In this document: positions 8 through 30,000 of the stretch, one piece after another | How the letters are laid out: the number at the start of each line of letters is the position of its first letter | How positions within the stretch are numbered: position 1 is the stretch's first letter | Assembly (NCBI GenBank): GCA_965217715.1 | Contig: OZ244563.1 | Location: 3,493,083 to 3,557,082 of the forward strand | DNA from: Candidatus Poribacteria bacterium | Lineage (GTDB): Bacteria > Poribacteria > WGA-4E > WGA-3G | DNA length: 64,000 nt | Direction: 5' to 3' | Notes under the pieces: generated by a model | Told to the model about the DNA's origin: nothing | What the model saw: the letters and a program-made list of their open reading frames with translations, nothing else | The model's database searches: none | Translations under genes and position numbers: made by a program

Positions 8-1519
8 TTATGCCCCTGAAGTTCGCGGCATCCACAGAGATTCCTTCCCCATTTCCGCAAACAAGAACTTCATAACTAATTCCGCCTTCAATTCAGCATG
101 CTCAGGTGAATTCCAAAGGTTGTTGATTTCCCCCGGATCCGCGTGCATGTCAAACAGTTCTCCATACTCACGATTATAATAGACGGTTAGTTTGTATCGG
201 TCATTTACGTAGGTTTTTACGTGTACAGTTGTCGGTTCATGATGATTCTCAACGATAATATGATCACGCGCTTGAACTTCCTGTCCATACCAGACTGGCG
301 TTTGATCAACACCTGTCATCGGATGTGGTATGTCAATCCCCGCTGCACTAAGGAACGAAGGCGCTAAATCAACTAAGGTCTGCAACGCATCAGATTGTTT
401 CCCCGCAGGCACAACACCCGGATACCGCGCGATAAACGGCACTTTTATAACGTCTTCGTAGTGGAACGCACCTTTGGCAATGAGACCGTGCTGCCCGTAA
501 AAATGCCCGTGATCTGATGTGAAGACAACCAACGTATTGTCAGCGAGTCCAAGTTCATCAAGTTTCGCCAAGATATTGCCAATATATTTGTCCATCAGAC
601 TCACCATGCCGTAATACACAGCAATATCTTTAGCGAGTTCATCCCGATCCCTTAAATGCGACCTAAATCCGTGGACACCCTTACCGCTTTCGCGCCATTC
701 AGAGAAATCTGGTTTTTGTTGCTGTGTCATTTGAAAATGCGGAGGGTTGTTGTCATGTTCTCCCTCTGTTACAGAAGGCACCGTCAAAGCTTCAGGGTCA
801 TACATCGTATCCCAAGGTTCTGGCACGAGATATTTCGGGTGTGGATCGAAGAAACTTGCCCACAGAAAAAAGTTTTCACCTTTCTGCTGATATGCCTCCA
901 TCAGCGCGTTCGTGCGTTCAGCGATCCAGGTATCGTAATGATACTCCTCAGGAATCGGCCACTTTCGGTATTGTCCGCGAGCGTTACCTGTCGGTGGAGC
1001 GAAGTAGTCACGCCAATTTGTAAAACCTTTTTCCTCCATCCAGATAGCATAATGTTGACCGACGTGCGCTTCATCGGCGTGGTTGCGTGCCAGTTCAACA
1101 TGCTCGAATCCGTAAAATGGTTCATTGAAGTTCCGCCAGAAATCTAAGTCTTGCAGAATAGGATAGGATTCCAGTGATGGAAATTCGTCTGTTCCATGTA
1201 GGGGTTGGAAGTGTGCTTTTCCGACAAGGGACGTGCGATAACCCGCGTCTGTGAAATCTTCACCAACGGTCCGTTCATCTTCAGAAAGTTTTGTGCCGAG
1301 AGACCACGCCCCGTGTTGACTCGGATATTTGCCTGTTATGATGGAAGCGCGTGTCGGCGTGCAGGTCGGGTTAGGGCAGTAGGCTCTATGGAAGAGTGTG
1401 CCATCTTGTGCTAAAGCATCTAAATGAGGTGTCTGAATTTCCGGGTTAAGGCAACCCAAAGTGTTCCAATGTTGTTGGTCGCTGGTGATAAGCAAAATAT
1501 TCGGTCTGGTTTTATCCAT
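8..1519 (-). CDS. Sulfatase (formylglycine-dependent arylsulfatase family)
   Basis: 503-aa ORF. N-terminal LLITSDQQHW and the CTPTR (C-x-P-x-R) formylglycine signature. The conserved GKAHF and SDHG blocks of the alkaline phosphatase/sulfatase superfamily are present. Confidence 0.9.
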   Translation of the reverse strand: MDKTRPNILLITSDQQHWNTLGCLNPEIQTPHLDALAQDGTLFHRAYCPNPTCTPTRASIITGKYPSQHGAWSLGTKLSEDERTVGEDFTDAGYRTSLVGKAHFQPLHGTDEFPSLESYPILQDLDFWRNFNEPFYGFEHVELARNHADEAHVGQHYAIWMEEKGFTNWRDYFAPPTGNARGQYRKWPIPEEYHYDTWIAERTNALMEAYQQKGENFFLWASFFDPHPKYLVPEPWDTMYDPEALTVPSVTEGEHDNNPPHFQMTQQQKPDFSEWRESGKGVHGFRSHLRDRDELAKDIAVYYGMVSLMDKYIGNILAKLDELGLADNTLVVFTSDHGHFYGQHGLIAKGAFHYEDVIKVPFIARYPGVVPAGKQSDALQTLVDLAPSFLSAAGIDIPHPMTGVDQTPVWYGQEVQARDHIIVENHHEPTTVHVKTYVNDRYKLTVYYNREYGELFDMHADPGEINNLWNSPEHAELKAELVMKFLFAEMGKESLWMPRTSGA

Positions 1520-1587
1520 ATATCTCCTTTATGTCTTTCACAAATCAGATAACAGGCTTCACTTTATAGGTCAACTTTATCTCCTAA

Positions 1588-2940
1588 TCATACATTTTTC
1601 CCTAAACAGCACTGCTTATACTTCCGTCCACTACCGCACGGACAAGGCGAGTTACGTCCAATCTTCTGTGACGACGTAGAAGTTGTCTGAACCTTCATAT
1701 TATCACTCTTGCCTTTTGCTTGCCGACTTTCCCGCATCATCGGTATAATACTATTCGCGGGTTTTCCTGCTTGGAGAGCCGAAGCCATCAGTTTCATAGG
1801 CTCGTCAATGTGATTGAAAAAATGCTTATAGCCAGCACAGAGGTAGTTCAAGCCGTCTTCTCCATCGGGCGTTTTGATAATACGGTTTTTTGGGCAGCCA
1901 CCATTACAAACGAACTTCACCTCACAATTACGGCAGTACTCCGGTAATGTATCCCGTTTATCCGTACCGAATTTACGTTGAAAAGGTGAATCAACCATGT
2001 CCGCTATTGGAGTTTCTTCTATGTTACCAATGTGGTAATCAGGTGTGACGTAATGATCACAGGAATAGAGATCGCCATTATGTTCAATTGCCATCGCATC
2101 GCCACAGGTCTCATTGAAAATACAGAGGCTTGGGTTATACCCCATCCATGCTTCTAACGCGACATCAAAAATCTGGACAAAGATTTTGCCGATGTCATTA
2201 ACAACCCATTCATCAAAAATGGTGGAAAGAAATTTACCGTACTGCTTTGCCGTGACGGAGCGCGGGGACACATTCTTCCCATCGAAATGTTCAACCGCCG
2301 GAATAAACTGCATGAACTCCGCCCCAAGTCCTTTGAAATAGTTGTAGACCTCTTTCGGATATTCGGCATTATGGCTATTCACAACACAAAGTATATTATA
2401 GTCAACGTTATGCTTCTGTAATATCCGTAACCCTCGAATTACCTGTTCTGATGACGGACGACCGCGTTTATCATAACGATATTTATCGTGAATATCAGGT
2501 GGCCCGTCAATACTTACTCCTATTAGAAACTTATTCTGCTTGAAAAATTGACCCCACTCATCATCCAGTAGCGTAGCATTAGTTTGAAACGTATTTTGTA
2601 TCGTCATGCCAGTGCGTCTATATTTTTGTTGATATCGGATCGCTTGGCGGAAAAAATCCACACCCATTAACGTCGGTTCGCCGCCTTGCCACGCGAACGT
2701 GACTTCGTTAACCTGCTGTGCCTCTATATATTGCTTGACATACTTCTCCAAAGTTTCATCGCCCATCCGGAAAGAGCGAGTTTCGGGGTAGAGTTCCTCT
2801 TTTTCCAGATAAAAGCAGTATTCGCAATCTAAATTGCAAATTGGTCCTATTGGCTTTGTCATCACATGAAAAGCGCGTGGTGCATTAGGTTGAACCATTC
2901 GATTTACCTCTCTGCTTAAACTTTGCGTTAAGTGTAGCAT
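1588..2940 (-). CDS. Anaerobic sulfatase-maturating enzyme (radical SAM/SPASM) with a C-terminal SEC-C-like CPCGSGxKYKxCC tail
   Basis: 450 aa with a CNLDCEYCF radical SAM cluster motif and Cys-rich SPASM region (CRNCEVKFVCNGGCPKNR). It sits immediately next to the sulfatase on the same strand. The last 25 aa carry an SEC-C metal-binding motif. Confidence 0.85.
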   Translation of the reverse strand: MLHLTQSLSREVNRMVQPNAPRAFHVMTKPIGPICNLDCEYCFYLEKEELYPETRSFRMGDETLEKYVKQYIEAQQVNEVTFAWQGGEPTLMGVDFFRQAIRYQQKYRRTGMTIQNTFQTNATLLDDEWGQFFKQNKFLIGVSIDGPPDIHDKYRYDKRGRPSSEQVIRGLRILQKHNVDYNILCVVNSHNAEYPKEVYNYFKGLGAEFMQFIPAVEHFDGKNVSPRSVTAKQYGKFLSTIFDEWVVNDIGKIFVQIFDVALEAWMGYNPSLCIFNETCGDAMAIEHNGDLYSCDHYVTPDYHIGNIEETPIADMVDSPFQRKFGTDKRDTLPEYCRNCEVKFVCNGGCPKNRIIKTPDGEDGLNYLCAGYKHFFNHIDEPMKLMASALQAGKPANSIIPMMRESRQAKGKSDNMKVQTTSTSSQKIGRNSPCPCGSGRKYKQCCLGKNV

Positions 2941-3207
2941 ATTCCACCTGAATCCTCAAGAAAAAAGTGTCTTCACATTCCATCCTGTAGGCATAATCAT
3001 CAACAAAAAACGAAGATTCCTATTAAATAATAAAAACTTCTTGTCAAGAAATATGTAGTATGATAAATTGTTTTCAATATAAGGAAATATCATGGAACTC
3101 ACTTTGATAGTCTTGTTTTTATTAAAGGTTCCTATTATTCCGACATTCGCAATCCTTACCCATGAACCACCACAGTAAGGTTCTGGATAGTAAGTGATAT
3201 ATAAAAT

Positions 3208-3993
3208 ATGGGAGTTTATCAAATGAAGTTGTTAAGCATAAGTATAGTGTTGCTCTTATGTCTCTGTGCCACTTCATGGGCACTTGAGCAGAACGACGAA
3301 GCGATCGTTGGTGTATGGCTGTTTGAAGGCAATGCTGACGATTCGTCAGGAAACAAAAATGATGGAAAGGTTAACGGAAATTTCAAATTTGAAGATGGTA
3401 AGTTCGGTCAAGCTGTCGTCGCTGCTGGTGGCGGTAGTATTGATGTCCAAGAATCAGATAGCTTAAAGAGCGTCGGAGATCAATTGACTGTCGCTGCATG
3501 GTTCCGAGTAGATGCCGATTCGGACACTGGTGTCAGGAAAAATGGCGCATATCTGTTAGAAGACCAATCTGGCGGTGAACCCATCCCTGACGGTTTCTCT
3601 TTCAGAATCTGGACAGACCAGGGTATTACACCCGGGTTCTACGGTAAAACTGAGTTAGAGCAGAAGAAATGGCATCACGTTGCCGGAACTTATGATGGTA
3701 AAAATGTTGAGATGTATGTTGACGGTGAACCAGAAAGTGCCAAAGGAGCGCTTAATGCTGGCAAGGCTGATTGGAAACCAGAATGGGGTGGAAAAGTACA
3801 ACCAGGCCAGACATTACAACTCAAATTCGGACCTGAGTCATATACCGGTGCTATTGATGAGATCGTCATTCTCAGTCGTGCGCTTGAGGCTGATGAAATT
3901 AAGCAGTTACTGAATGGTTGGGGAGATGCTTTTGATGTTGGACCTGAAGGAAAATTAGCAACAACATGGGCACGGGTAAAAGCCGCCCGGTAA
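3208..3993 (+). CDS. Secreted LamG/concanavalin-like domain protein, paralog A, with conserved C-terminal KLATTWARVKAAR tail
   Basis: Signal peptide (MKLLSISIVLLLCLCATSWA). LamG-type blocks KWHHVAGTYDG and EMYVDGE. About 75 percent identical to the next ORF. Confidence 0.6.
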   Translation: MGVYQMKLLSISIVLLLCLCATSWALEQNDEAIVGVWLFEGNADDSSGNKNDGKVNGNFKFEDGKFGQAVVAAGGGSIDVQESDSLKSVGDQLTVAAWFRVDADSDTGVRKNGAYLLEDQSGGEPIPDGFSFRIWTDQGITPGFYGKTELEQKKWHHVAGTYDGKNVEMYVDGEPESAKGALNAGKADWKPEWGGKVQPGQTLQLKFGPESYTGAIDEIVILSRALEADEIKQLLNGWGDAFDVGPEGKLATTWARVKAAR

Positions 3994-4098
3994 TCTTATC
4001 GGCTGTACAAGGTTAATCATTCTATTTTCTTTACATGGGACAATTATATCTTGTTCCGGAAAGTTAATACAATTCGTTATAATTGACAATTCATATAA

Positions 4099-4887
4099 AT
4101 GGAGGAATTTAAATTGAAGTTATTGAGTGTAAGTATCAGTTTGGTACTATGTATTTGTGCTGTTTCATGGGCATTAGATCAGGATGATCCAGCAATTGTT
4201 GGTGTATGGCTGTTTGATGGTAATGCTGACGATTCGTCAGGGAACAGCAATAATGGAGAAATTAAAGGCGATTTCTCATTTGAAGCTGGCAAATTTGGTA
4301 ATGCTGTTGTTGCCAGTGGAGGCGGTAGCATTGACGTGCCTAATTCGGATAGCATCCTAAGTGTCAAAACAGGGTTGACTGTTGCGGCATGGTTTCGAGT
4401 AGATACTGACTCGGACACTGGTGTTAGAAAAAATGGCGCATATCTGTTAGAAGACCAATCTGCTGGTGAACCTATTCCTAACGGTTTCTCCTTCAGAGTT
4501 TGGACGAGCAATGGTATTTCACCAGGCTTTTATGGCAAAACAGAATTGCAGCAGAAAAAGTGGCATCATGTTGCGGGAACTTATGATGGCGAAACTATTG
4601 AGATGTATGTTGATGGTGAACCAGAAAGTGCCAAAGGTGCGCTGAGAGACAACAAAGCTGACTGGGATCCAAAGTGGAGTGGTGATGTTGCCGCTGGTCA
4701 GACGTTACAACTCAAATTCGGTTCTGAGACATATCACGGTGCCATTGATGAGATCGTTATTGCCAGTCGCGCTCTTGAGGCTGATGAGATTAAGCAGCTG
4801 ATGGCGGGCTGGGATCAAGCTTTCACTCCTGTTGAACCCCAAGGTAAATTGGCTACAACGTGGTCAAGATTGAAGGCTTCCCGATAA
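4099..4887 (+). CDS. Secreted LamG/concanavalin-like domain protein, paralog B, C-terminal KLATTWSRLKASR tail
   Basis: Tandem paralog of 3208..3993 with the same domain blocks and signal peptide. Confidence 0.6.
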   Translation: MEEFKLKLLSVSISLVLCICAVSWALDQDDPAIVGVWLFDGNADDSSGNSNNGEIKGDFSFEAGKFGNAVVASGGGSIDVPNSDSILSVKTGLTVAAWFRVDTDSDTGVRKNGAYLLEDQSAGEPIPNGFSFRVWTSNGISPGFYGKTELQQKKWHHVAGTYDGETIEMYVDGEPESAKGALRDNKADWDPKWSGDVAAGQTLQLKFGSETYHGAIDEIVIASRALEADEIKQLMAGWDQAFTPVEPQGKLATTWSRLKASR

Positions 4888-4980
4888 TTTGATCAATATA
4901 TATTGGGACACCTTGGTGTGTCCCCAAACCAATTATGGTGAATTATTGAAATAATTATACACCTCACTTGTGAATCAACG

Positions 4981-5045
4981 CCAAATGCGCCAAATCAACG
5001 GTATGAATGCCATTTAGGCATTCCCCGTATGGCATTTGGCGGGAG
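4981..5045. repeat. Repeat family AATGCGCCAAATCAACGGTATGAATGCCATTTAGGCATTCCCCGTATGGCATTTGGCGGGAG (representative copy)
   Basis: Also at 19301..19370, 23505..23550, 24740..24815 and 33880..33990. Contains the nested palindromes AATGCCATTTAGGCATT and GCCAAATGC/GCATTTGGC. Confidence 0.75.
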
Positions 5046-5183
5046 CGATCTCCGAATCGCGACCAAAACCATTCGTAGTCGGGAATCGGAGTTCCCTCCT
5101 ACAGATGAATAATGTCTAATTAATTCTAAAATCTACCATAAACACCTTCTTTCGTTGTAAGATTGACCTCCCGCACTTGATTT

Positions 5184-6716
5184 TCAATTAAACCTATTTT
5201 CAACCTCACCAAACGACAGAATTTTCTTTATCTTCCCCGGTTGTGCCCAGTTACACTTTCCTGCCCCATTAAGTTGTCGCAACAATATCGGAATTTCTGG
5301 ATTTTCAAGTGAGGTTTTAATCCTTTGTGCTTCGTCTTTAGACCAGCACGGGATAAACGCATGCATCGCCTGATTGCCTTGCCACATCTGCCCATCTACA
5401 CTACTTAATATAATCGGGTTAAATTGATTCTTCCCATACGCCTGCCATATCACCTTGAAAGGTGCAAATGAATAGGGACCAACGCCAAGCATCGCCCACC
5501 AATTTCCCTTATTCATAGACGCACGCAGCATCGTGCCTTTCCTTGCTTGTAGTTGGTCTTGGTAGCGCTGAAGATAGTCCTGCAATATGTCATATTTTCC
5601 GATTTGATCCCATGTAAGCGGTTTTCCCGTTTCCCGATGATACGGCAGCAGAATCCATTTGTGAGGTGATAATACATTTTGCCGCCATATCTCCTTGCTT
5701 GCGAGGGGATATAGAAATTCTTCGGGGAGATGTGAAGGTTTGTGGTCAAAGATAAAAACACTATTCGCACCACATGTATTCACACCTTGCCGCGGCTTTT
5801 GTTCAGGTCCTAATCTGATCTCAAGTGTTTCACCCGCCTTGAGTTCATCAAGGTTTTGCACTACCCGCCATGGGTCAGTAGGATTTTTGAGCGGTAAAGC
5901 CTTATGTTCAATCCAATTTCCATCCACCTCTTTGAAATATGTGACTGGAAATTCCTGTTGTGTATCACTTTGAAACCTTGCACAACAGTATGCAGTGTTA
6001 ACCCCATCAAACACTTTAGTAGATGTAAATTCATAAACAACATCTATGGCAAAATTCCGATAGGTATCAAAGAAACTTTGCGAGCATTTAGCACTATAAT
6101 TTCTAAATCCGCTATGTGCGCCATCGCCAAAGAAGAGAGATGTCGGGAGATAGAAATAACCTGAACCGTTCTTTTTGAGTAGTTTTCCGAGAGCAATCTT
6201 CAGCACCAACGCCGCTATATCAACGCGAGAAGACCCCAAAAGTGTCCGTTGCGTATCCGCAACAAGTCCTTCTTGAATAAAATAGGGTTTTAGAAGTGTT
6301 TTGTAAGTCGTAGGTAAGTCTCCGAAGTTTGCCCACGGCGGATTCCCAATGAGAATGTCATATTGTTGTGTATGCGCCTCCGTGATAACATCTTGACAGA
6401 AGATTTGAGAGGAAGGAAAATCAACGCCAAATTCTCGTTGAACATTTTCTCTGAACTGCTCAAGGAACGAAGGGACTATCTCAATGAGCGTTAGACGTGA
6501 CATACGTTCCGCGCTAATTGGAATTCCTCTGTTCCGTGCGATATGGAGCATCGCTAAGACGAATACACCTTGTCCTGCTGTAGGGTCACAAATATGAGCA
6601 CCGTCAAGCCACGCATCAAAGATATCCCACTTATTGATGAGCCATTCTGCCCATTTGAGTGGTGTAAAAACTTTTCCGATATTAGCGTCTATTAAATGAG
6701 AAATGTTTGTATCCAT
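5184..6716 (-). CDS. N6-adenine DNA methyltransferase, gamma class (M.TaqI-like)
   Basis: GKVFTP at the N-terminus, motif I DPTAGQGVF, motif IV IGNPPW, then GSGYFYLPTSLF. The order and spacing match M.TaqI-type gamma methyltransferases. A long C-terminal target-recognition region follows. Confidence 0.8.
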   Translation of the reverse strand: MDTNISHLIDANIGKVFTPLKWAEWLINKWDIFDAWLDGAHICDPTAGQGVFVLAMLHIARNRGIPISAERMSRLTLIEIVPSFLEQFRENVQREFGVDFPSSQIFCQDVITEAHTQQYDILIGNPPWANFGDLPTTYKTLLKPYFIQEGLVADTQRTLLGSSRVDIAALVLKIALGKLLKKNGSGYFYLPTSLFFGDGAHSGFRNYSAKCSQSFFDTYRNFAIDVVYEFTSTKVFDGVNTAYCCARFQSDTQQEFPVTYFKEVDGNWIEHKALPLKNPTDPWRVVQNLDELKAGETLEIRLGPEQKPRQGVNTCGANSVFIFDHKPSHLPEEFLYPLASKEIWRQNVLSPHKWILLPYHRETGKPLTWDQIGKYDILQDYLQRYQDQLQARKGTMLRASMNKGNWWAMLGVGPYSFAPFKVIWQAYGKNQFNPIILSSVDGQMWQGNQAMHAFIPCWSKDEAQRIKTSLENPEIPILLRQLNGAGKCNWAQPGKIKKILSFGEVENRFN

Positions 6717-7356
6717 TGTTTCTAAATGCCTCTAAATCTGCAATACGTCTTAACGCGTCACTGCTAACTCGTCTATAATGTTGGATAGCGAGATCTATGA
6801 ACATATCATAAAAATCAGTAATATCCCGATTCCAATCAATTTCCTCCCAAACTTGGTTAACTGTGTAATTAAGCCGTATCTGTCCAGTACCAAGATTTTC
6901 AATTCTGTATGCATCCTGAGGGAATAAAATAAAAGGTGCTACACGGATATATACAAAATCGCGTTTTTCACTCTGGGGAGATAATTTGTTGTGTCCAAAT
7001 TCTGCGATAAGGAACATCCCATTATCATTTGCCAGAAATTTCAACAAATTACCAACAGCACAAATCCCACCATCAGAGTACCGAGTTGAATCTAGGTCCT
7101 TAGTTTTAACATCAACTCCAATGATTCTATTTTCAAACTGTAAAGCAAAATCAAAGATGGTACGTCTTCCTGGTCGTACTAACGCAGGATATCCAAGATC
7201 TGAACACATCTGGTCCCAATTATCAGCTATCTTTTTTTCAATCATTGCTCCAAAAGCTCGGGAATCTTCGCGTGCTGCTAACCCCGATGTTAGTTCTTCA
7301 GAAAAAATCTCAGATAGTTTATCTTCTATTTGACTGGATATTTCCTTTAGATCCAT
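6682..7356 (-). CDS. Putative Type II restriction endonuclease (PD-DxK-like)
   Basis: 224-aa ORF overlapping the methyltransferase start by 35 nt on the same strand. It contains IFDFAL ... IIGVDVKTK, consistent with a D...DxK nuclease core. No other recognisable domain. Confidence 0.45.
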   Translation of the reverse strand: MDLKEISSQIEDKLSEIFSEELTSGLAAREDSRAFGAMIEKKIADNWDQMCSDLGYPALVRPGRRTIFDFALQFENRIIGVDVKTKDLDSTRYSDGGICAVGNLLKFLANDNGMFLIAEFGHNKLSPQSEKRDFVYIRVAPFILFPQDAYRIENLGTGQIRLNYTVNQVWEEIDWNRDITDFYDMFIDLAIQHYRRVSSDALRRIADLEAFRNNGYKHFSFNRR

Positions 7357-7626
7357 AAAATTCCTCCTCTTCCATTCATTATAGTCAATTTATTAGTATG
7401 ATATTACAATTATGCCAACAACCGAGATCGTTGGGACAGTCGCAATAACCCTTGTTACAATGTTAGTATGTATTTTATCACTTATGAATATATTAATCAA
7501 CTTGTTAAATTTCTTTTGGCTTGACCTTTTCAGAGCAAATATGGTACCATTTGATAACCACCTGTCCTAACAATGTTTTCCGCACACTGTAACGGCACTT
7601 ATGGATAGTGAAAGGCAGATTATGCA

Positions 7627-8475
7627 ATGGCAGCAATAAAAACAGACCTTTATCTTGGAGATTGTTTAGAGGTTCTGTCCAATTTTGACACCGATTCGTT
7701 TGACCTGATTGTGACTTCTCCGCCATACGCAGATCGCCGATCCAAAACGTATGGCGGAATCAATCCCAATGAATATGTAAATTGGTTTATGCCTCGCGCT
7801 GAACAATTTTTACGAGTCCTCAAGCCATCTGGCACATTCATCCTGAACATTAAAGAAAAAGCCGTTAACGGAGAACGGCACACTTATGTTATTGAGTTGA
7901 TACTTGAAATGAAAAAACAGGGATGGTTGTGGACAGAGGAGTTTATCTGGCACAAGAAAAACAGTTATCCGGGCAAATGGCCGAACCGATTCAGAGATGC
8001 TTGGGAAAGATGTCTACAGTTTAACAAAAGCAAGAAATTCAATATGTATCAAGAGGCTGTTATGGTGCCGATGGGAGATTGGGCGAAGAAGAGGTTGAAA
8101 AATCTCAGCGAAACAGATCAGAGTCGGGATACGTCAAAAGTGGGTAGTGGGTTTGGTAAAAATGTGTCAAATTGGTTAGACCGCAAAATGGCGTATCCGA
8201 CAAATGTTTTGCACTTAGCAACGGAAACGGGAAACCGAAAACATAGTGCCGTTTTCCCTAAGACTTTGCCTGAGTGGTTTATCAAGTTGTTTACGCAAGA
8301 AAATGATTGGGTGCTTGACCCGTTTGCAGGTTCAGCGACGACTTGTCAGATTGCTCAAAAGTTATCTCGAAATTCTGTGGGTATTGAAATTTTTCCCGAA
8401 TACTACCATGTTGCAAAGGAAAATATCAAACCAACACCATTTAAGATTGAGCACGAGATGAGGGCAACTATTTGA
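7627..8475 (+). CDS. DNA methyltransferase, beta class (N4-cytosine or N6-adenine; PF01555-like)
   Basis: DLIVTSPPYADRR (SPPY motif IV) near the N-terminus and VLDPFAGSATT (motif I) near the C-terminus. That circularly permuted order is typical of beta-class N4C/N6A methyltransferases. Divergent from the methyltransferase/nuclease pair. Confidence 0.8.
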   Translation: MAAIKTDLYLGDCLEVLSNFDTDSFDLIVTSPPYADRRSKTYGGINPNEYVNWFMPRAEQFLRVLKPSGTFILNIKEKAVNGERHTYVIELILEMKKQGWLWTEEFIWHKKNSYPGKWPNRFRDAWERCLQFNKSKKFNMYQEAVMVPMGDWAKKRLKNLSETDQSRDTSKVGSGFGKNVSNWLDRKMAYPTNVLHLATETGNRKHSAVFPKTLPEWFIKLFTQENDWVLDPFAGSATTCQIAQKLSRNSVGIEIFPEYYHVAKENIKPTPFKIEHEMRATI

Positions 8476-8780
8476 ATTATGCCTACAACATTTTGCAATG
8501 CTGAAGGCAACATGCTTTGGGAAGAAATCGTTAAATTTAATTCTGCAGAGACCCGTCTTGAAGCCAATCCCAAGTCCGTTTGATACTGAATTTTTAATCA
8601 TTTCCCACAACGAACTCCTATCTCCTAATCTCAAATAAACCAATCCACTTTCCCACCGAAAAACACCCTCTCAATTCAAACTGAATCCTCTGTATTAGCC
8701 ACAATTTTTCTGGACAAGCAGCGAATCCCATGCTATGCTAAACACCATATATCACATAGCTATTATACAGAGGAGAAGTT

Positions 8781-10337
8781 ATGGCAAACGAAGATTTTAC
8801 CTCTAAAGTACCGCACTATACCTTCGCGGAAACGTTGGAAGAACAGGAAGAACAGTTAAAAACCAATCCGTTAATGCAACGGTTGAACGCTTATCGTAAA
8901 ACTTACAAAGACGACCCGCACCGTCCGATCTACCATTACATCAATCCAGAAGCAATGCTCAATGACCCGAATGGACTCTGTTTCTGGCAGGGACGGTGGC
9001 ATCTTTTCTATCAGGCATATCCACCAGAAGATACACGTCAGCACTGGGGACACGCCGTTAGTGATGACCTCATCCATTGGCGTGATCTACCCTACGCAAT
9101 ATATCCGAACCCGGAACGCTGCTGTTTCTCCGGTTCAACTTTCGTGGAAGAAGACCGCGTGATAGCGATGTATCACGGCACAGTTGTCGGCAACATGGTG
9201 GCGGTATCAAGCGACCCGCTCCTTCTGAATTGGGAGAAGGTCTCCGGCAAGGCAGTCATCCCATCAAGACATGCAGACGGCACAACACCTATCTACCGTG
9301 TTTTTGATCCGTGCATCTGGGAAAAAGACGACATGTATTACTCGCTATCGGGCGGAACGTTACCGCATGGCCCTGGTGGTAAACCTGTTCGCGCCAATTT
9401 CTTACTCCGCTCGGCAGACTTAGCGAACTGGGTCTATTTGCACCCCTTCGTTGAAGATGATCAATACACGTTGGTCGGCGATGATGGCGCATGTCCCTAT
9501 TTCTGGCCCATAGGTGACCGACACATCCTCCTATTTTTCAGTCACATGAGTGGTGGACAGTATCTGCTCGGTGATTACGACAAAGCACGTGATAAGTTTG
9601 TCGTGACAGCAGGGGCAAAAAACAATTTTGGCGTAGCATCTCCCGCTGGTGTTCATGCGCCGTCTGCGGTTCCTGATGGTGAGGGTGGTGTCATCGTAAT
9701 CTACAACATGAATCCAGCAAAACCTACCAAGGGTTGGAACCAGATTATGACGTTACCGCGCCGTCTAACGCTTCTCTCTAAAGATGAAATCGGTGTTGAA
9801 CCTGCAGGTGATATTGAATCATTGCGGTCCGACCATCAGCATGTCAATGCGACAACACTCCCCGCAAACGAGGAAGTTGTGTTAGAGAACATTAAGGGCA
9901 ATGCGATGGAACTTGAACTCGAAATTGACACCAAAGGCTCCCCGATGGTTGAGTTGAACGTGCTTCGTTCGCCGCAGAAAGAGGAATTCACCCGAATCGC
10001 TTTCTTCAGAGAACGCGGTATGCGTAATCACAATTCGGACAGAAATGTACGTGAAAGCCTGCTAACGATAGATTCATCGTATTCGTCAATTGCGCCAGAT
10101 GTGCGTTCACGAGCACCCGAAACTGGTGGGTTGTCAATTTTGGGGGACGAAACGCTCAAACTACGCGTATTTGTTGACAAGAGTGTCGTAGAAGTGTTCG
10201 CCAATGGACGGCAATGTGTTGCTATGCGCGTCTATCCCGACAGGGAAGATAGTGTTGGTGTGTCTTTGCGTTCTCAAGGGCAAGACAGTGAACTCAAATC
10301 ACTGGATGCTTGGCAGATGAAGAATATCTATGCTTAA
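8781..10337 (+). CDS. Glycoside hydrolase family 32-like (beta-fructofuranosidase/levanase fold)
   Basis: YHYINPEAMLNDPNGLCFWQGRWHLFYQ (NDPNG nucleophile block), WGHAVSDDLIHW and FSGS blocks. The RDP-like (VFDP) and EC-like (ACPY) blocks look non-canonical. Confidence 0.7.
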   Translation: MANEDFTSKVPHYTFAETLEEQEEQLKTNPLMQRLNAYRKTYKDDPHRPIYHYINPEAMLNDPNGLCFWQGRWHLFYQAYPPEDTRQHWGHAVSDDLIHWRDLPYAIYPNPERCCFSGSTFVEEDRVIAMYHGTVVGNMVAVSSDPLLLNWEKVSGKAVIPSRHADGTTPIYRVFDPCIWEKDDMYYSLSGGTLPHGPGGKPVRANFLLRSADLANWVYLHPFVEDDQYTLVGDDGACPYFWPIGDRHILLFFSHMSGGQYLLGDYDKARDKFVVTAGAKNNFGVASPAGVHAPSAVPDGEGGVIVIYNMNPAKPTKGWNQIMTLPRRLTLLSKDEIGVEPAGDIESLRSDHQHVNATTLPANEEVVLENIKGNAMELELEIDTKGSPMVELNVLRSPQKEEFTRIAFFRERGMRNHNSDRNVRESLLTIDSSYSSIAPDVRSRAPETGGLSILGDETLKLRVFVDKSVVEVFANGRQCVAMRVYPDREDSVGVSLRSQGQDSELKSLDAWQMKNIYA

Positions 10338-10637: not shown

Positions 10638-11789
10638 ATGAAACGTCTCACACTAACATCGCTGGGACAAATCCGTGAAGCCGATATTGTCTTTGGAGAT
10701 CTGACAGTGTTTGTCGGTGAACAAGCGAGTGGAAAGAGCATTCTACTCCAACTTGTAAAGTTAATTTCAGACGCAGGCGATACTACGCAAACTCTCAAAA
10801 AACACGGTTTTGATTGGCAGAAAAAAGTTGAGAATTTTTTATCTCTTTATTTTGGTGAAGGGATGGGGACGATTTGGAACAAGGATGAGACGAAAGTCAC
10901 CGTTGATAAGGTAGATTTTACGCCTCGAAAAGCGTTATTAAAGAGAAAGAAAGATGAGAGTCTTTTTCTGATACCGGCACACCGTGTTGTAACATTAAAA
11001 GATGGATGGCCACGTGCTTTTACCGACTATGGCACGAGCGATCCGTACGTCGTTAAGGAGTTCAGCGAACAATTGCGCCTATTGATGGAAGCGGGTTTTG
11101 GTTCAGGTGAAAGCCCTATATTTCCTCATGCAGGTCGTATGAATAAAACAATACGAGATGCAATCGGGAAAAGTATCTTTGGGGAGGCTGAGTTGAGATT
11201 GGATAGATCCGGGCTGCGTAAACGGATTGTATTAGATGTTGCGGGTGCTCAACTACCATTTATGGTGTGGTCTACAGGTCAGAGAGAATTCGCTCCTCTT
11301 TTACTGGGACTGTACAGGTTAATGCCTTCAGGAAGAGCGCAAAAGAAAAATAACATCAACTGGGTTGTTATTGAAGAACCGGAAATGGGGTTGCATCCCA
11401 AAGCGATCTCAGCACTTCTCCTCATATTTTTAGAGTTATTAAGACGAGGTTACAAAGTCATTGTTTCGACCCATTCATCGCAAATTTTAGAACTTATCTG
11501 GGCTATTCAACTCATTGCTAAATCAAAAAATGCACCAGCAAGGTTAAGACAGTTGCTGGATTTGAAACCGAATAGCTTTTCCTATGACCTTACAGAGACA
11601 GTCATGCACAAAAAAACGTTCAAAACCTATTATTTCTCTCGTGAAGACAGTGTTGTAAATGTCAAAAATATCTCAACATTAGATGCGGAGGACATGGATG
11701 TTGAAGTATCGGATTGGGGAGGGTTAACAGCATTCAGTACTAAAGTTTCTGAAGTCGTCTCTGAAGCTATGTGGAGGACAGACGTGTGA
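10638..11789 (+). CDS. AAA_21/AAA_15-type ABC ATPase (OLD/Septu/PARIS-like defense ATPase family)
   Basis: Walker A GEQASGKS. Mid-protein VIEEPEMGLHP (ABC signature/D-loop analog typical of AAA_21). H-loop VSTHSSQIL. Confidence 0.75.
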   Translation: MKRLTLTSLGQIREADIVFGDLTVFVGEQASGKSILLQLVKLISDAGDTTQTLKKHGFDWQKKVENFLSLYFGEGMGTIWNKDETKVTVDKVDFTPRKALLKRKKDESLFLIPAHRVVTLKDGWPRAFTDYGTSDPYVVKEFSEQLRLLMEAGFGSGESPIFPHAGRMNKTIRDAIGKSIFGEAELRLDRSGLRKRIVLDVAGAQLPFMVWSTGQREFAPLLLGLYRLMPSGRAQKKNNINWVVIEEPEMGLHPKAISALLLIFLELLRRGYKVIVSTHSSQILELIWAIQLIAKSKNAPARLRQLLDLKPNSFSYDLTETVMHKKTFKTYYFSREDSVVNVKNISTLDAEDMDVEVSDWGGLTAFSTKVSEVVSEAMWRTDV

Positions 11790-12238
11790 ATATTTTCAAA
11801 AAAGCAGTTCGGAGTGTACCTGAAATACACGATTGTTTCAAAGACGGGTTACAGGCATTAGGGTCAAATAGTAGCAAGATAAAAGGATATGCGAAAGGTG
11901 ACCTTGTAGGAAGTGTTAACATAGACACTTGTCTCAAAAACCGTTATCCGAACGCATCCCGTTGGGATTATGTATTTGGTTGTAATGACAGGATTTACTA
12001 TGTTGAAGTTCATCAAGGGAAAACAAGTGAAGTAACAAAAATTGTTGAGAAATTAAATTGGTTAAAACAATGGCATAAGACTGCAGCAACGAGTCTTGAA
12101 AATTTGAAGGATCGGAGCATCTATCACTGGGTCTCTACGAAAGGAACTGCATCAATTGCCAAAGGAAGCAGACATCGCAGAAGATTAGATCAAAATGGCA
12201 TCCGTGGACCGAGTGCCGTATTGCGTATTGAACGCTGA
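11771..12238 (+). CDS. Small hypothetical protein (155 aa) overlapping the ATPase gene; candidate effector/partner
   Basis: Its start overlaps the ATPase stop by about 19 nt, which suggests translational coupling. No recognisable domain. RWDYVFGCNDRIYYVEVHQGK has a weak D...E.K flavour. Confidence 0.45.
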   Translation: MEDRRVNIFKKAVRSVPEIHDCFKDGLQALGSNSSKIKGYAKGDLVGSVNIDTCLKNRYPNASRWDYVFGCNDRIYYVEVHQGKTSEVTKIVEKLNWLKQWHKTAATSLENLKDRSIYHWVSTKGTASIAKGSRHRRRLDQNGIRGPSAVLRIER

Positions 12239-13596: not shown

Positions 13597-14361
13597 ATGA
13601 AGATCGTAATAGCGAATTTAATTCTTGGGTGTGCCAGTTTAATTGTCCTTATCTTGATATTCGTTGGCATCAGCAATGCCGAACTTGATCTGAAAACCGT
13701 TGTCGGAATGTGGCACTTTGATGATGACAAGGGGAATACAGCGAAGGATTCCTCTGAAAATGGCAATGACGGAAAACTTGTGAACAGTCCAAAATGGACA
13801 AAAAACGGTAAGTTCGGATCTGCACTGGAATTTGATGGAAATGAAAGTAAAGGCCAGGTGGCTGTTGGGGATTTGGGTTTATCTGGAACGATCACATTAA
13901 TTTTGTGGGCAAATCCAAACGATGCGGTTAATGATGATCGGCTAATATCGAATACCAGTGGACCGACAAATCCAGCCTTCGCAACCCGGTTCCAAAATGG
14001 CGCGGTTGAAATCTGGGGTACCGCCTGGAAACCCGTCATCCCAAAATTTGATAATAATAAATGGGGGTATTATGCCTTCGTATTTGATGGTGCTGGAAAT
14101 GTGACAGGCTATTACAATGGTAAAAAAGAGGACACGGTTTCCGATCCCTATGTTTTTACGGAGATCGGTATTGGCGCGAATTTTTTAGATCAATGGGGAC
14201 AATATTTTTCAGGTCTCTTTGATGAGGTCGCGTTTTTCAATGTTGCTTTGACTGAGGCTGACATTAAAGCTCTCATGACAAAGGGGCTCAAATCCGCGTT
14301 GTCGGTTTACCCCGCAAGCAAATTAACTACAACATGGGGAAATATAAAAGCCAACCTATAG
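13597..14361 (+). CDS. Secreted LamG-like domain protein, paralog C, C-terminal KLTTTWGNIKANL tail
   Basis: N-terminal hydrophobic signal/anchor. LamG-like blocks (GKFGSALEFDG ... YYAFVFDG ... YYNGK). Shares the C-terminal KLxTTWxxIKA tail with 3208..3993 and 4099..4887. Confidence 0.55.
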   Translation: MKIVIANLILGCASLIVLILIFVGISNAELDLKTVVGMWHFDDDKGNTAKDSSENGNDGKLVNSPKWTKNGKFGSALEFDGNESKGQVAVGDLGLSGTITLILWANPNDAVNDDRLISNTSGPTNPAFATRFQNGAVEIWGTAWKPVIPKFDNNKWGYYAFVFDGAGNVTGYYNGKKEDTVSDPYVFTEIGIGANFLDQWGQYFSGLFDEVAFFNVALTEADIKALMTKGLKSALSVYPASKLTTTWGNIKANL

Positions 14362-17087: not shown

Positions 17088-18218
17088 CTATTCAACATCT
17101 TTTGCACAACGGAATCCGAGCGCACCAATCCCCGCATAAGCAGGACTATCTCCATAACGATTTGCAGCGCGTAACCATTCAGGATTACCGTTCCATCCAC
17201 TACCACGCAGGACACGATCAGTTACAACGTTCTCAAAATCGTTTACAATTTCTTCAATGTTTTCAGCACCAGCGACAGGATTTTGTTTTGGAGAATTTGC
17301 ATAGAAGTCACTCTGGTATGCGTCAAGACACCACTCCCACACATTCCCCGCCATATCATATACGCCGTAATCATTTGGTAGGTATTTACCAACAGGTGTC
17401 GTATGTCCGATATTCTTACCGTAGTTGGCTCTTGTCCCGTTAATCGTATTACCCCACGGATATTTTTTGCCTTTTAGTCCACCGCGTGCTGCCTTCTCCC
17501 ATTCTGCCTCTGTTGACAGACGTTTATCTACCCATTGTGCGTAAGCCATTGCGGCATACCAACTGACGTAACGTACAGGATGCTCACCTTCCTCGTCAGG
17601 ATAATTATTACCATTCCAATCGTGCAGATAATTACCATTTTGGAATCTTTCCTCAATGCGGTTTTTCTGCCACTCAGGGTTTGCGAGAATAAAGTCCTTA
17701 AATTGTGCATTGGTAATTTCGTTTTCATCAATATAAAAAGCATCAATATAAACGGTATGCTCGGGTTGTTCATCAGCATCACCATCTTCGCTTCCCATCT
17801 GAAATTCACCTTCCGGAATTAGCACCATCCCCTCAGGAGCAATAAGTTCCGGTTCAGAAACTTGCTCAGGTTCAACATCAAGCGGTTCGGAAGTACCTAC
17901 TGTGTATGTTAAATCTCGGGTTCCACCCTCCCATGTGAGTGTCAAGGTAAATTGTCCTTGTGGGAATGGACCCGCGATTGTGACCGTTGTGCCAAATATT
18001 GTGGCGGCACCCACATTCACCGCTACACTGCCAGGGTCTTTGTCAAAAGTAACGGTAATAGTGCTATTTGCCTTTATCATGCTACCGGGCGTTGGGTTTG
18101 CACGCAGCAACCGGACGGTTTCAACGTCATCATCTTCTGCCCGTTCTCCACAACCAGCGATGTAAACAACGGACATTCCTATTATTACCAACGCGAAAAT
18201 TTTTAACAAGGTTTTCAT
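17088..18218 (-). CDS. Lipoprotein with C-terminal formylglycine-generating enzyme (FGE/SUMF1) domain
   Basis: Lipoprotein signal (..VVYIAGC). FGE-sulfatase domain blocks: YPWGN, GNVWEWCLDAY, RVLRGSGWNGNPEWLRAANRYGD. Confidence 0.8.
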   Translation of the reverse strand: MKTLLKIFALVIIGMSVVYIAGCGERAEDDDVETVRLLRANPTPGSMIKANSTITVTFDKDPGSVAVNVGAATIFGTTVTIAGPFPQGQFTLTLTWEGGTRDLTYTVGTSEPLDVEPEQVSEPELIAPEGMVLIPEGEFQMGSEDGDADEQPEHTVYIDAFYIDENEITNAQFKDFILANPEWQKNRIEERFQNGNYLHDWNGNNYPDEEGEHPVRYVSWYAAMAYAQWVDKRLSTEAEWEKAARGGLKGKKYPWGNTINGTRANYGKNIGHTTPVGKYLPNDYGVYDMAGNVWEWCLDAYQSDFYANSPKQNPVAGAENIEEIVNDFENVVTDRVLRGSGWNGNPEWLRAANRYGDSPAYAGIGALGFRCAKDVE

Positions 18219-25638: not shown

Positions 25639-26127
25639 CTAAAAGTAGCCAATTGTCCATAAAGTCCGTAAAATGATAATCCCACCTGCTAAACCGCCAA
25701 ATATAATAATGAGGCTGAGGTTGATTATTAACGCGTGCCGAAAGATTCGTTCAGTTAATTCCGGTTGTTCCTTTACCCATGCCCGTGCTAAGTTGAAGGT
25801 TAGGACAACGCTAATCAGGCTCAGGATAGCCGCGCCTAAAAATGCCACGAGAATACCTCGAAAATCTACCATCTCCATTGTGTCTGGGATTGAACCGTAT
25901 TGTGAATAACGTTGGATGACAACGATTAAGATGCCCAACAAAATGACAATAAATCCGATGAATGCGATTAGGGCTTTTTTAAAGGTTATCGTGAACGACT
26001 TAACCCATTGATACGTGCGCCTGATGCAAACGATTAGGGCTTTTTTAAAGGTTATCGTGAACGACTTAACCCATTGATACGTGCGCCTGATGCAAACGAT
26101 TAGGGCTTTTTTAAAGGCATTTCCCAT
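25639..26127 (-). CDS. Small polytopic membrane protein containing a 66-bp (22-aa) tandem duplication
   Basis: 162-aa ORF with three predicted TM helices. Its N-terminus repeats FKKALIVCIRRTYQWVKSFTIT twice and starts a third copy. The DNA repeat covers about 25970..26110. Confidence 0.4.
   Translation of the reverse strand: MGNAFKKALIVCIRRTYQWVKSFTITFKKALIVCIRRTYQWVKSFTITFKKALIAFIGFIVILLGILIVVIQRYSQYGSIPDTMEMVDFRGILVAFLGAAILSLISVVLTFNLARAWVKEQPELTERIFRHALIINLSLIIIFGGLAGGIIILRTLWTIGYF
25970..26110. repeat. 66-bp direct tandem repeat (2.3 copies) inside the coding sequence
   Basis: GATTAGGGCTTTTTTAAAGGTTATCGTGAACGACTTAACCCATTGATACGTGCGCCTGATGCAAAC occurs twice in a row, followed by a 21-nt partial third copy. 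Confidence 0.85.
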
Positions 26128-27041: not shown

Positions 27042-30000
27042 TTGCGCTTAAGATGTCAATGCATATATAATAAAAATATGAATTTTCAAAGACACTGCAA
27101 CCGTTATCTAAAGAAAATACGTCAAACACAATCCGACTCGAATGCAACCCCCGAACTTTCTTTGCACCACCATCTCCAAGCATTCTTGGAAGATGTTACC
27201 ACAGACGCAGAATGTTTTAATAGACCCAACATAACATTTACGCACGAACCGAGAAATATTGACCAGATCGGACGACCTGATTTCATTGCAAAAGATGGAT
27301 TTCTACCACTTGGTTATATTGAGGCGGAAGCGGACGGCACAGACCTAAACAACCTAACAGGGCATGCCGCAGAACAGAATGAACGTTTTAGGGAAAACCT
27401 TGATAACTTTATCCTCACCAATTTCATTGGTTTTGAGTTGTGGCGGGATGGGCAACTACGTGCTTATGCAAATATTGAGAATGAAACTGATAATTTTAAA
27501 ACGTTATTGGAGCAGTTTCTGGACGCTGGGCATGTCCAAATCGCCTCTGCAGAGGCACTTGCAAAATACCTCGCCAGACGGACGCGTGAACTACAAACGC
27601 AGATTGCAACAACGCTCACCGATGAGGACAGTGAAACTTACAGCATGTTCAACGCGTTCAAGGAAACGTTGCTCGTCACACTCACCCGTGACGATTTCGC
27701 GGATATGTATGCGCAAACTCTTACCTACGGATTGTTCGCCGCACGCTGCACATTGCCGAATGCAACAAATTTTTCACGGCACACCGCAGTCGGTGCACTG
27801 CCAAGATCAAACCCATTCCTCATAGAACTCTTTTATCACGTCGCTTCTCCGAGACTTGAGACGAATGTTACCTATATTCTGGATGACATTGCAACGCTGC
27901 TCCAAAACGTCTCAACTGAAATGCTCCGCACAGCTTTCTCTGCAAATAACCATCTTGAAGACCCAGTTATCCATTTCTACGAGACATTTCTAAAAGAATA
28001 TAATCCAGAACTTCGCTTTGATCGTGGGGTATTTTATACACCGCCGCAGGTTATCTCCTACATCGTCAAATCTGTGGATAGTCTGCTGAAAACAGAACTC
28101 AACAGATCCGATGGACTTGCAGATGATGATACGCTTATTCTCGATCCTGCCACAGGTACGGGCGGATTTCTGCTAACAGTGCTTGACCATATCCGAGAAT
28201 ATGTTACGACCAATTACGGTACAGGGGATTGGAATCAGTATATCAACGCAAATTTGGTCCGACGGCTTTATGGATTTGAACTACTTGTTGCACCTTATAC
28301 GATTGCGCATCTGAAGTTAAGTCTGTTTTTGCAAGCGCAAGGGTGGCGCACTAATGAACGTCTCGGCATCTATCTGACCAATGCTTTGGAACAACCGGAT
28401 GAGATGCAGGCACCTTTGCCTTTTGCTGCGTTTATCTCTGACGAAGCGAACGCGGCACTCGCTGTGAAAAGGGACGAACCTATCCTTGCTATTCTCGGCA
28501 ATCCTCCGTATCCAGAAAATTCTGCTAACCCAAGCCGAGTCAATAGAAAATTAACTTTTATTGGTGAACTCATTGAAGATTACAAACAGGTAGATGGAGA
28601 ACCGATCAATGATAGGAACTTAAAAATGCTTCAGGCAGATTATGTAAAATTCACTCGATGGGCACAGTGGCGAATTGATAGAAACGGTGAAGGCGTTATC
28701 GGTTATATTGTCAATAATAGTTTCCTTGATGGTCCCGCTTTTCGTGGGATGCGGCAGAGTCTAATGACGAGTTTCAACGCTATCTACATACTCAATTTAC
28801 ACGGTAGCATCAGAAGACAGGAAGCAGTACCGAATGGACAGAAAGATGAAAATATCTTTGATATTTCACAAGGAGTCTCTATTCTGTTATGTGTCAAAGA
28901 ACGTGGCAATCCTTCACCGGCAAAGGTTTATCACGCGGATATGTGGGGATCTCGAGAAGAAAAATACAGAACACTTTCGGAAACCGATGTTCAGTCCACA
29001 GAGTGGTGTAAGTTACAACCGAAATCACCACTTTACCTTTTTGTGCAACAAGCTACAGACTATAGTTCAGAGTACGAAGCAGGTATCAGAATTAACGATA
29101 TTTTTCATATAGGTTCGGTTGGAATGGCTACGGGTCGGGATAGATTGACGATTCACCAGACTGCTGAAGATGTCCATAAAACGGTAACCGATTTTGCTTC
29201 ACTTTCTGCAGATGAAGCACGGGAACGGTATGATTTGGGAAGGGATACTCACCATTGGCAGATTCCTCGTGCTCAGACAGATCTTCGCAATAACTCAGAT
29301 GCCGAACAACACATAACAAAAATTCGCTACCGCCCCTTTGACATGCGTTGGACCTATTATACAGGGCAAACAGGTTTCCACTCACGTCCAAACTACAATA
29401 TCATACGACATTTACACGGCGTTGAAAATCTTGCTTTCTGTGTCTGTCGCATTGTTACAAGCTCTGTTTGGAAGCATGTTTTGATAACTGACAATATAAC
29501 TGAAAAGAGTTATATCTCAAATAGAGGAAGTGAAGCCACTCACTTATTCCCGCTCTACCTGTATCCAGATTCAGAGGCATTATTAGGTTCAACAGAACGT
29601 GAACTCAATTTCAAACCTGAATTTCTCACCGCACTCTCGGAGGCGTTGGGATTACCGCAGGCTGCACCGTTTGGACTCCCCGAAGACGTTACACCAGAGG
29701 AAATTCTCGCTTATATTTACGCTGTGCTTTATAGTCCTACCTATCGCGAACGTTATTATGAGTTTCTAAAATACGATTTTCCGCGTATCCCTTTACCACA
29801 GGATATTGACTCCTTTTTTGCACTTGCAGAGTCAGGGCAAGAATTAATTGATCTGCATCTCTTCAAGGATAGGAACATACCGCATCGCCATCGGTTTGAG
29901 GGTGAAGGTGATGGCGTTGTCTCAGGGGTTCGTTATGAAGGTGGTAATGTTTGGATAAATGGGACGCAGCATTTTACGGATGTGCCTGCAGATGTGTGGG

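Follow-up and report, generated by a model that had tools for sequence, protein, structure and literature searches.

The stretch of DNA analysed here (the window) comprises 64,000 nucleotides of a Candidatus Poribacteria bacterium genome (GenBank assembly GCA_965217715.1, contig OZ244563.1, positions 3,493,083-3,557,082 of the forward strand), and it carries three genes for secreted LamG-like proteins that end in a common short tail, hereafter the tag. Unless stated otherwise, coordinates are those of the window. An earlier note on this DNA had described the three open reading frames (ORFs) and had proposed that their shared ending is a novel sorting signal. The ORFs are present at 3208-3993 (gene 1), 4099-4887 (gene 2) and 13597-14361 (gene 3), all on the + strand, and their endings are as quoted in that note: KLATTWARVKAAR, KLATTWSRLKASR and KLTTTWGNIKANL, respectively. 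Genes 1 and 2 are separated by 105 bp, and gene 3 lies 8.7 kb downstream.

Gene 1 (3208-3993, +, 261 residues) encodes a signal peptide, a LamG jelly-roll (PF13385), a linker and the tag DVGPEGKLATTWARVKAAR (3934-3990, +), which fits the consensus given below. Translation probably begins at the ATG at 3223, as the homologues (256 residues) start with MKLLS. A Sec signal peptide is predicted from the hydrophobic N-terminus (3208-3282, +), with cleavage placed between CATSWA and LEQ by the AxA rule, and residues 2-22 form an isolated helix in the AlphaFold2 model. No identical protein is on record for the gene 1 product (exact look-up). Gene 2 (4099-4887, +, 262 residues) is its tandem paralogue (75% identical), and the product is identical to database protein P0041; the tag of gene 2, TPVEPQGKLATTWSRLKASR (4825-4884, +), has the full V-E-P form and aligns with the PEP of PEP-CTERM homologues. 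Gene 3 (13597-14361, +, 254 residues) is a distant LamG paralogue, approximately 30% identical to genes 1 and 2, conserved as an orthologue across Poribacteria and ending in the tag SVYPASKLTTTWGNIKANL (14302-14358, +). A hydrophobic, signal-like N-terminal segment is present in each of the three products. As the earlier note had observed, the bodies of the paralogues diverge while the tail motif is kept.

One Laminin_G_3 domain (PF13385) was identified in each product (E = 4.5e-21, 6.4e-22 and 7e-16 for genes 1, 2 and 3, respectively), with Pfam scores of 76, 78.8 and 59.2 bits against a gathering cut-off of 27.6, which places all three in this family. The domain ends at residues 232, 232 and 224 (in gene 1 it covers residues 77-232), and is followed in each case by approximately 30 residues of linker and tail. 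The cores of genes 1 and 3 were modelled by AlphaFold2 as confident jelly-rolls, with a predicted local distance difference test (pLDDT) score above 90. Their nearest solved folds (Foldseek) are carbohydrate-binding ConA/LamG-like domains (E of about 1e-11 to 1e-9): domain 4 of the GH43 enzyme AbnA and the lectin-like domains of clostridial neurotoxin binding fragments (E = 1e-11), together with trans-sialidase lectin domains. Searches at E ≤ 1e-3 returned 233 homologues for gene 1 and 247 for gene 3, nearly all of them from metagenomes, and the named homologues of both genes are recorded as 'LamG domain-containing protein [Candidatus Poribacteria bacterium]'. The bodies of the three window proteins are ordinary secreted lectin-like modules.

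The conservation of the tail among LamG paralogues could mean that it is the last structural element, a beta-strand, of this LamG family, and a buried strand of this kind had been named in the earlier note as the observation that would overturn a sorting role. In the two AlphaFold2 models (genes 1 and 3) the tail is the sole low-confidence part besides the signal peptide (block means of 61, 55 and 46 over residues 241-261 of gene 1, and of 40 and 36 in gene 3, where pLDDT is below 50 over residues 238-254); both models render it as a weakly supported helix (pLDDT of about 60 or less), detached and unpacked, and not as a strand of the sandwich or as a buried element. The Pfam domain stops approximately 30 residues before the C-terminus. 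In addition, LamG homologues from other genomes (54-62% identical) carry a classical PEP-CTERM in place of the tail (...LPIPEPTSLSLLALGLLSLGLCRRR), and some of these also contain a dockerin (PF00404). Because these homologues end in PEP-CTERM instead, the LamG domain folds without the tail. When aligned with MAFFT, the V-E-P of the tag shares its columns with the P-E-P of the PEP-CTERM homologues; judged from this alignment, the tail appears to occupy the position of a known sorting signal, and the carrier domain would show a 'choice of anchor' behaviour. The tail is also found on more than ten unrelated Pfam folds, as detailed below. The last-strand explanation was refuted on these four grounds (the non-LamG carriers, the end of the domain, the pLDDT values and the PEP-CTERM homologues) and retains a negligible probability.

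The occurrence of the motif was assessed in the window and then in public genomes as follows. In all six frames of the 64-kb window, K[LIVM][ATS]TTW occurs in the three tails only, with the final K three residues before the stop each time, against a chance expectation of approximately 0.01 (calculated from amino-acid frequencies). A degenerate DNA pattern encoding K-L-x-T-T-W-[GA]-x-[ILVMF]-K-xxx-stop was scanned over 185,579 species genomes (one genome for each species, 596 Gb), and gave at least 119 loci, against about 17 expected by chance. Although TGG was likewise accepted in place of the stop codon, a true stop followed in 135 of the 137 matches listed. A looser motif with no stop condition yielded 32 further copies in the flanks of these loci: all 32 lie 1-8 residues from a stop codon and none is internal.

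For the analysis of conservation, 127 non-identical tails were aligned on the tryptophan, and conservation was counted at the positions that had been left free in the search pattern. The motif of 11-13 residues given in the earlier note proved too short: the conserved element spans approximately 20 residues and includes an upstream V-[ED]-P. Its consensus is [LTF]-[APS]-V-[ED]-P-x-[GDN]-K-L-[ATS]-[TVI]-T-W-[GAS]-x-[LIV]-K, after which come 1-8 residues (mostly 3) without conservation and the stop codon; in the window, gene 1 carries the variant VGP and gene 3 the variant VYP. Outside the search pattern, V is found at -10 in 98% of the tails, E or D at -9 in 73% and P at -8 in 72% (A in 19%), and conservation extends to A/P/S at -11 and G/D/N at -6. 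The final 1-3 residues are unconserved, the last one being R (34%), Y (14%), K (14%) or Q (13%). A similar picture was obtained with a set gathered through the LamG body and not through the pattern: neither the W nor the second K varies, at least 90% of the tails keep the first K and the V, and position 4 is T, V or I. In the 121 orthologues of gene 3 (at least 73% identical), conservation reaches 90-100% in the core, falls to 54% at the free third position and is 34-67% over the last three residues. The homologue search with gene 3 returned only such orthologues (at least 73% identical), all with the tag and none with an alternative anchor.

The same ending on unrelated genes could also reflect the DNA itself, as a translated repeat, a terminator or a mobile 3' cassette, and a hairpin does follow gene 2 at 4905-4924. 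At the conserved residues, all synonymous codons were seen (four for V, four for P, six for L and four for T; K likewise), and the nucleotides of the three window copies differ at wobble positions while the amino acids are conserved. Because the codons at conserved residues vary freely, selection operates at the protein level: the constraint acts on the peptide and not on the DNA. The DNA repeat or terminator was refuted by this codon analysis, and the chance that a DNA-level artefact explains the tail is vanishingly small.

For the characterisation of the carriers, the last 25 residues were removed from the 137 ORFs that end at the listed matches. The 124 tail-stripped ORFs of at least 150 residues, together with the three window proteins, fell into 23 BLAST clusters (among the matches listed). 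Pfam analysis of the cluster representatives identified Laminin_G_3, CBM9, CBM_4_9, F5/8-type-C (discoidin) and 3keto-disac_hyd (3-keto-disaccharide hydrolase, DUF1080) domains, as well as a PD40 beta-propeller, HmuY and an ankyrin plus zincin protein; several families gave no Pfam match. A 1,681-residue carrier combines a signal peptide, He_PIG immunoglobulin (Ig) repeats and lamin-tail (LTD) domains, an arrangement that, from its predicted domains, appears typical of surface adhesins. The carriers have a median size of 260 residues (5th-95th percentile 225-298).

A profile built from 30-residue tails was also used for an exhaustive HMMER search of 1.84 billion cluster representatives, and matched 296 clusters at E ≤ 1e-3. 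The best 150 of these 296 comprised 149 new proteins, 140 of which contain the core motif, at most 9 residues from the C-terminus in 131 of the 140. The motif-bearing matches of at least 150 residues (n = 40) included 29 LamG and 5 DUF1080 proteins and added Kelch propellers and a metallophosphatase to the families above (Pfam). A profile of four tandem tail copies gave one match only. The other outcome that the earlier note had set against a sorting signal, confinement of the motif to one LamG family, was not what these searches returned: the tag is spread over 23 clusters and many Pfam families. The 'family expansion' inferred in the same note holds for the tandem pair and the third copy, which are real; it is secondary for the tail, which is common to many unrelated families and was not spread by the duplication of one of them.

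In P0267 and P0286 (445 residues, Candidatus Poribacteria), an ECF (extracytoplasmic function) sigma-70 factor (regions 2 and 4) is joined with a hydrophobic segment, a DUF1080-like domain and the tag. This organisation reflects either two genes fused in annotation or a regulator that spans the membrane and exposes a tagged domain in the periplasm.

Most of the carriers have a single glycan-binding domain and approximately 260 residues, which would suit an oligomerisation or co-assembly peptide without any sorting role, for instance an inter-subunit beta-hairpin that raises lectin avidity. The P-x-G turn of the tag and its beta-branched T/T/V/I residues would suit such a hairpin, and the tail weakly and non-significantly resembles (E = 0.14, PDB 6gxr_A) the seven-fold blade repeat DVFAVDxxGxLxVxW of the propeller lectin BP39L. 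However, the tag is also found on enzymes, propellers, the ankyrin-zincin protein and the 1,681-residue adhesin-like protein, its confinement to within 1-8 residues of the C-terminus is unexpected for a motif of this kind, and in homologues this site is taken by a genuine sorting signal. Oligomerisation is considered quite unlikely as the role of the tag.

The earlier note had predicted that the tail would be enriched among proteins with signal peptides, and this was borne out: an N-terminal hydrophobic segment was detected in 93% of 143 tagged ORFs (at least 150 residues), compared with 36% of 561 neighbouring ORFs. Most of the ten tagged ORFs that lack the segment are cut off at locus ends or mis-started, and a lipobox-like site was found in 5 of 134 tagged ORFs. 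Because several exported proteins of the window (a secreted WD40 protein, an amidase lipoprotein, a GHL10 protein and an FGE-domain lipoprotein) do not carry the tag, it marks a subset of exported proteins. A C-terminal site on a flexible linker of an exported protein is also where a degron or processing handle would be expected, read by an envelope protease of the Prc/Ctp type that controls turnover. PDZ-type proteases, however, read the last 3-4 residues and the free carboxylate, whereas the last residues of the tag vary in both sequence and number, and one conserved degron on so many structural and lectin proteins is hard to explain; this role is judged highly improbable. Two further candidates were tried and rejected: a ribosome-arrest peptide, as there are far too many structural carriers, and a RiPP-type (ribosomally synthesised and post-translationally modified peptide) Lys-Trp crosslink site, as the carriers are Sec-exported folded proteins.

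The at least 119 loci were assigned, among the matches listed, to Poribacteria (111), to 'uncultured bacterium' (6) and to Pseudomonadota or Deltaproteobacteria (2, both short contigs). Two of the six 'uncultured bacterium' loci are syntenic with Poribacteria loci (73-96% identity). On these assignments, the tag appears to be widespread across Poribacteria and restricted to that lineage. One locus labelled 'uncultured bacterium' (L019, CAYYPK010000004.1, 64% GC) contains three clear tagged genes and two degenerate ones (RRLVTTWAGLKGD and DALTTTWGSLKVKGVP) within 8 kb; it comes from a high-GC metagenome-assembled genome unlike the sponge Poribacteria loci, and some of its carriers are PD40 propellers. 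From this locus, the tag may extend beyond the labelled phylum.

When IMG/VR was scanned with the DNA pattern, three contigs only were obtained (L122, L123 and L124), all with genuine tags. L124 (IMGVR_UViG_3300032360_000003, 66,974 bp) is phage-like: a LamG protein with a signal peptide (8629-9552 of that contig) ends in ...GLKIEPKNKLVTTWGEMKKWK, and its neighbours are a family B DNA polymerase (110-2278), a RecA-like protein (3177-4277) and a DnaB-like helicase (4277-5662). Phages of Poribacteria appear to carry tagged auxiliary proteins, and the phage copy fits a signal that is read by host machinery.

The tag was compared with known C-terminal signals. As the earlier note had stated, it matches none of them: no model fits the tail in Pfam (E ≤ 1) or NCBIfam (E ≤ 1-10), even when tails alone were searched at E ≤ 10, and no paper containing KLATTW, KLTTTW or KLSTTW was found in the searchable literature. 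The likeness to PEP-CTERM/exosortase signals (PF07589, TIGR02595) lies in the extreme C-terminal position, the attachment to many unrelated Sec-exported proteins of one lineage, the preceding linker and, over three residues, a possible [VI]-x-E-P-like motif in the same columns of homologous LamG proteins. In contrast to PEP-CTERM, the tag has no hydrophobic transmembrane segment or Arg cluster, and consists of a polar K-L-x-T-T-W-G-x-[ILV]-K followed by 1-8 residues. After V-E-P it reads x-G-K-L-A-T-T-W-G-x-I-K-x-x-x, with at most one terminal R or K, which is not the transmembrane helix and basic cluster of such signals. No tail matched PF07589 or TIGR02595, and no PEP-CTERM-like C-terminus was seen in approximately 800 ORFs of Poribacteria DNA; no exosortase turned up in the window or in approximately 1 Mb of loci, in which no search was aimed at exosortases. 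Neither an LPXTG-like motif nor a transmembrane helix with a basic tail was found in any tail.

With the C-terminal domains of the type IX secretion system (T9SS; type A TIGR04183/PF18962, type B TIGR04131) the tag shares the lack of a transmembrane helix, Sec-exported diderm cargo, lineage specificity and a varied cargo that includes lectin-like domains and giant adhesins. The T9SS domain is, however, a folded beta-sandwich of 70-100 residues, and the tag, at approximately 20 residues, has a quarter of that length. No match to the T9SS domain models was obtained in Pfam and NCBIfam scans of at least 30 carriers. TIGR04183-like domains, but no T9SS structural genes, were reported in single-cell genomes of Poribacteria (Kamke et al., 2014; PMC3909097). 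These domains are a different element from the tag. Dockerins (PF00404) are likewise C-terminal modules on diverse secreted glycan-active proteins, and the tag could dock on a common scaffold in the manner of a dockerin on a cohesin; a dockerin, though, is a calcium-binding, duplicated EF-hand module of approximately 70 residues without similarity to the tag. PF00404 matches were confined to the PEP-CTERM homologues, with none in the tagged proteins, and a cohesin-like receptor was not detected. Finally, the beta-signal of outer membrane proteins is a short C-terminal motif, possibly a beta-strand, that is read by envelope machinery, as the tag might be. That signal is the aromatic last residue of a beta-barrel, whereas the tag ends variably (R/K/Y/Q) on soluble beta-sandwiches, propellers and enzymes, which sets its carriers apart from beta-barrel proteins.

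A further parallel is offered by the C-terminal amphipathic anchors of PBP5/6 and the membrane-targeting sequence of MinD, which are short terminal peptides of soluble proteins without a transmembrane helix. By this analogy, the tag would be a self-sufficient anchor: a short cationic amphipathic peptide that binds the outer leaflet or lipopolysaccharide directly, with no partner. The carriers are soluble, have type-I signal peptides and would otherwise float free; the tag contains basic and aromatic residues (the W is flanked by K, K and R), and both AlphaFold2 models draw it as a helix, at low confidence. Such a helix would bring L2, W6 and I9 together on a single face, with lysines at either end. 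The hydrophobic moment was 0.31-0.44 at 100-110 degrees, with the helical peak at 110 degrees (0.44, against 0.27 for shuffled sequences). This moment is modest and is as high (0.47) at 160 degrees, the angle of a beta-strand, the mean Eisenberg hydrophobicity is close to zero (-0.03), and T-T, G and the P-x-G turn are poor helix formers. Moreover, generic amphipathic anchors are strongly amphipathic, poorly conserved and prone to drift, whereas the tag is weakly amphipathic and its W, both K, T, L, V and P are strongly conserved across unrelated families. Because this conservation exceeds that of generic amphipathic anchors, a specific reader is indicated. Direct membrane binding also gives no role to the conserved upstream V-E-P, and a self-sufficient anchor is regarded as unlikely.

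The anatomy of the tag is that of a terminal and portable element, carried by exported cargo of one lineage on a flexible linker, at the positional equivalent of PEP-CTERM. Its sorting or anchoring role, and the way in which it would be exerted, are inferred. We consider that the tail would best be explained as a lineage-specific, portable C-terminal sorting or anchoring tag without a transmembrane helix, read by a dedicated envelope component (probability of roughly 0.6). The proposal of a novel sorting signal in the earlier note is upheld in part, in so far as the tail is terminal, portable, export-linked, lineage-restricted and unmatched by known models; the partner gene that would complete it was not found. 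The proposed mechanism would proceed as follows: the cargo would be exported through Sec and its N-terminal signal peptide removed; the tag, on a flexible acidic or glycine-rich linker, would then be recognised in trans by the envelope component, which would route or tether the cargo to the cell surface or the outer membrane. The cargo consists mostly of lectin-like beta-sandwiches of approximately 260 residues, with enzymes, beta-propellers and the giant Ig-repeat adhesin-like protein in addition. By analogy with known systems, we lean slightly towards processing near V-E-P, in the manner of exosortase, over non-covalent docking of a retained peptide in the manner of a miniature dockerin, and the evidence separates neither from the other. 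A known sortase, exosortase or T9SS is improbable as the machinery, given that the tag lacks both a transmembrane anchor and a folded domain.

Several observations weigh against a dedicated sorting tag. It lacks the transmembrane helix and basic cluster found in every sortase-, exosortase- and rhombosortase-type signal and is far shorter than the T9SS C-terminal domain, so that it has no mechanistic precedent. The match between V-E-P and P-E-P covers three residues only, and two of the three window copies deviate from it (VGP and VYP). ConA/LamG-like lectin folds account for over half of the carriers (67 of 127 from the pattern and 29 of 40 from the profile), which would suit a role tied to lectin biology, such as oligomerisation. 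Lastly, the earlier note had suggested that a sortase-, exosortase- or protease-like gene might co-occur with the tail, and none emerged from approximately 1 Mb of flanking DNA: clustering of approximately 790 neighbouring ORFs from the at least 119 loci revealed no partner of the tag.

In this clustering, the neighbours that recur (PhyH, Gfo/Idh/MocA, PD40 and FGE-domain lipoproteins) all belong to families with a general expansion in Poribacteria. In one conserved operon (L011, L016, L069 and L113), lipoproteins with an FGE-sulfatase domain (PF03781) are encoded directly downstream of tagged genes, in the same orientation and at a distance of 2-110 bp, and in L090 such a gene lies approximately 290 bp upstream of a tagged pair; in the window, an FGE-domain lipoprotein is encoded at 17088-18218 (-), 2.7 kb from gene 3. 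Apparent FGE neighbours at L097 and L107 were dropped, as only the N-terminal Ig-like part of the window protein had matched. The FGE lipoproteins and the T9SS ring protein PorK/GldK are members of one superfamily. The best NCBIfam similarity of the FGE lipoproteins was to the GldK/PorK model, with scores of 124, 95 and 158 bits where the cut-off is 350; they form a large family. As candidate partners of the tag, these lipoproteins constitute a weak lead.

Other features of the window were recorded as follows. Divergent from the tandem LamG pair, the region 8-2940 (-) contains a sulfatase-like ORF (8-1519) and a radical-SAM-like ORF (1588-2940) that resembles an anaerobic sulfatase-maturating enzyme (both read from translations). 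The LamG-maturase arrangement is kept in L037 (maturase 84% identical); the LamG and methylase genes recur in L092. Further sulfatase-like ORFs are present at 52232-53692 and 61291-62691. The tagged LamG proteins may bind sulfated glycans. Genes of defence type lie near or between the paralogues (5184-8475, 10638-12238 and 27078-30158): an Eco57I-like methylase and a second DNA methylase (read from translation), an AAA_21 (AbiEii-like) ATPase with a small downstream ORF, and a Type ISP restriction-modification enzyme of 1,026 residues. Paralogous multi-pass membrane proteins with DUF6785 and DUF6784 (E = 1e-149 and 7e-161) are encoded at 35932-37824 (+) and 53937-55904 (+), and relatives of these were found, among the matches listed, in 5 of the at least 119 tag loci. 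A weak ORF (25639-26127, -) upstream of an infC-rplT-pheST cluster (gene names read from translations) contains a perfect tandem repeat (25965-26117; 2.3 copies of a 66-bp unit at 100% identity). Two adjoining short ORFs at 58708-59747 (+) resemble the halves of a frameshifted IS630-type transposase (read from translations).

C-terminal sorting tags allow a surface proteome to be read from sequence alone, and in each earlier case (LPXTG, PEP-CTERM, GlyGly-CTERM and the T9SS domains) the tag pointed the way to a dedicated envelope machine. At somewhat less than even odds, the tag would be the label of a previously unrecognised diderm sorting or display system: the first C-terminal signal of approximately 20 residues without a transmembrane helix, served by new envelope machinery with possible cleavage at V-E-P, borne by about a hundred cargo proteins per genome and exploited by phages. 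If the sorting role is true, the 20-residue label would define a likely surface or secreted 'tagome' from genomes, would give a handle for metaproteomics and imaging (a hidden Markov model, an anti-peptide antibody or a diagnostic tryptic peptide), and would serve as the query for phylogenetic profiling toward the machinery. Poribacteria are dominant uncultivated sponge symbionts, and the tagged cargo would then include glycan-binding proteins through which they engage the sponge matrix.

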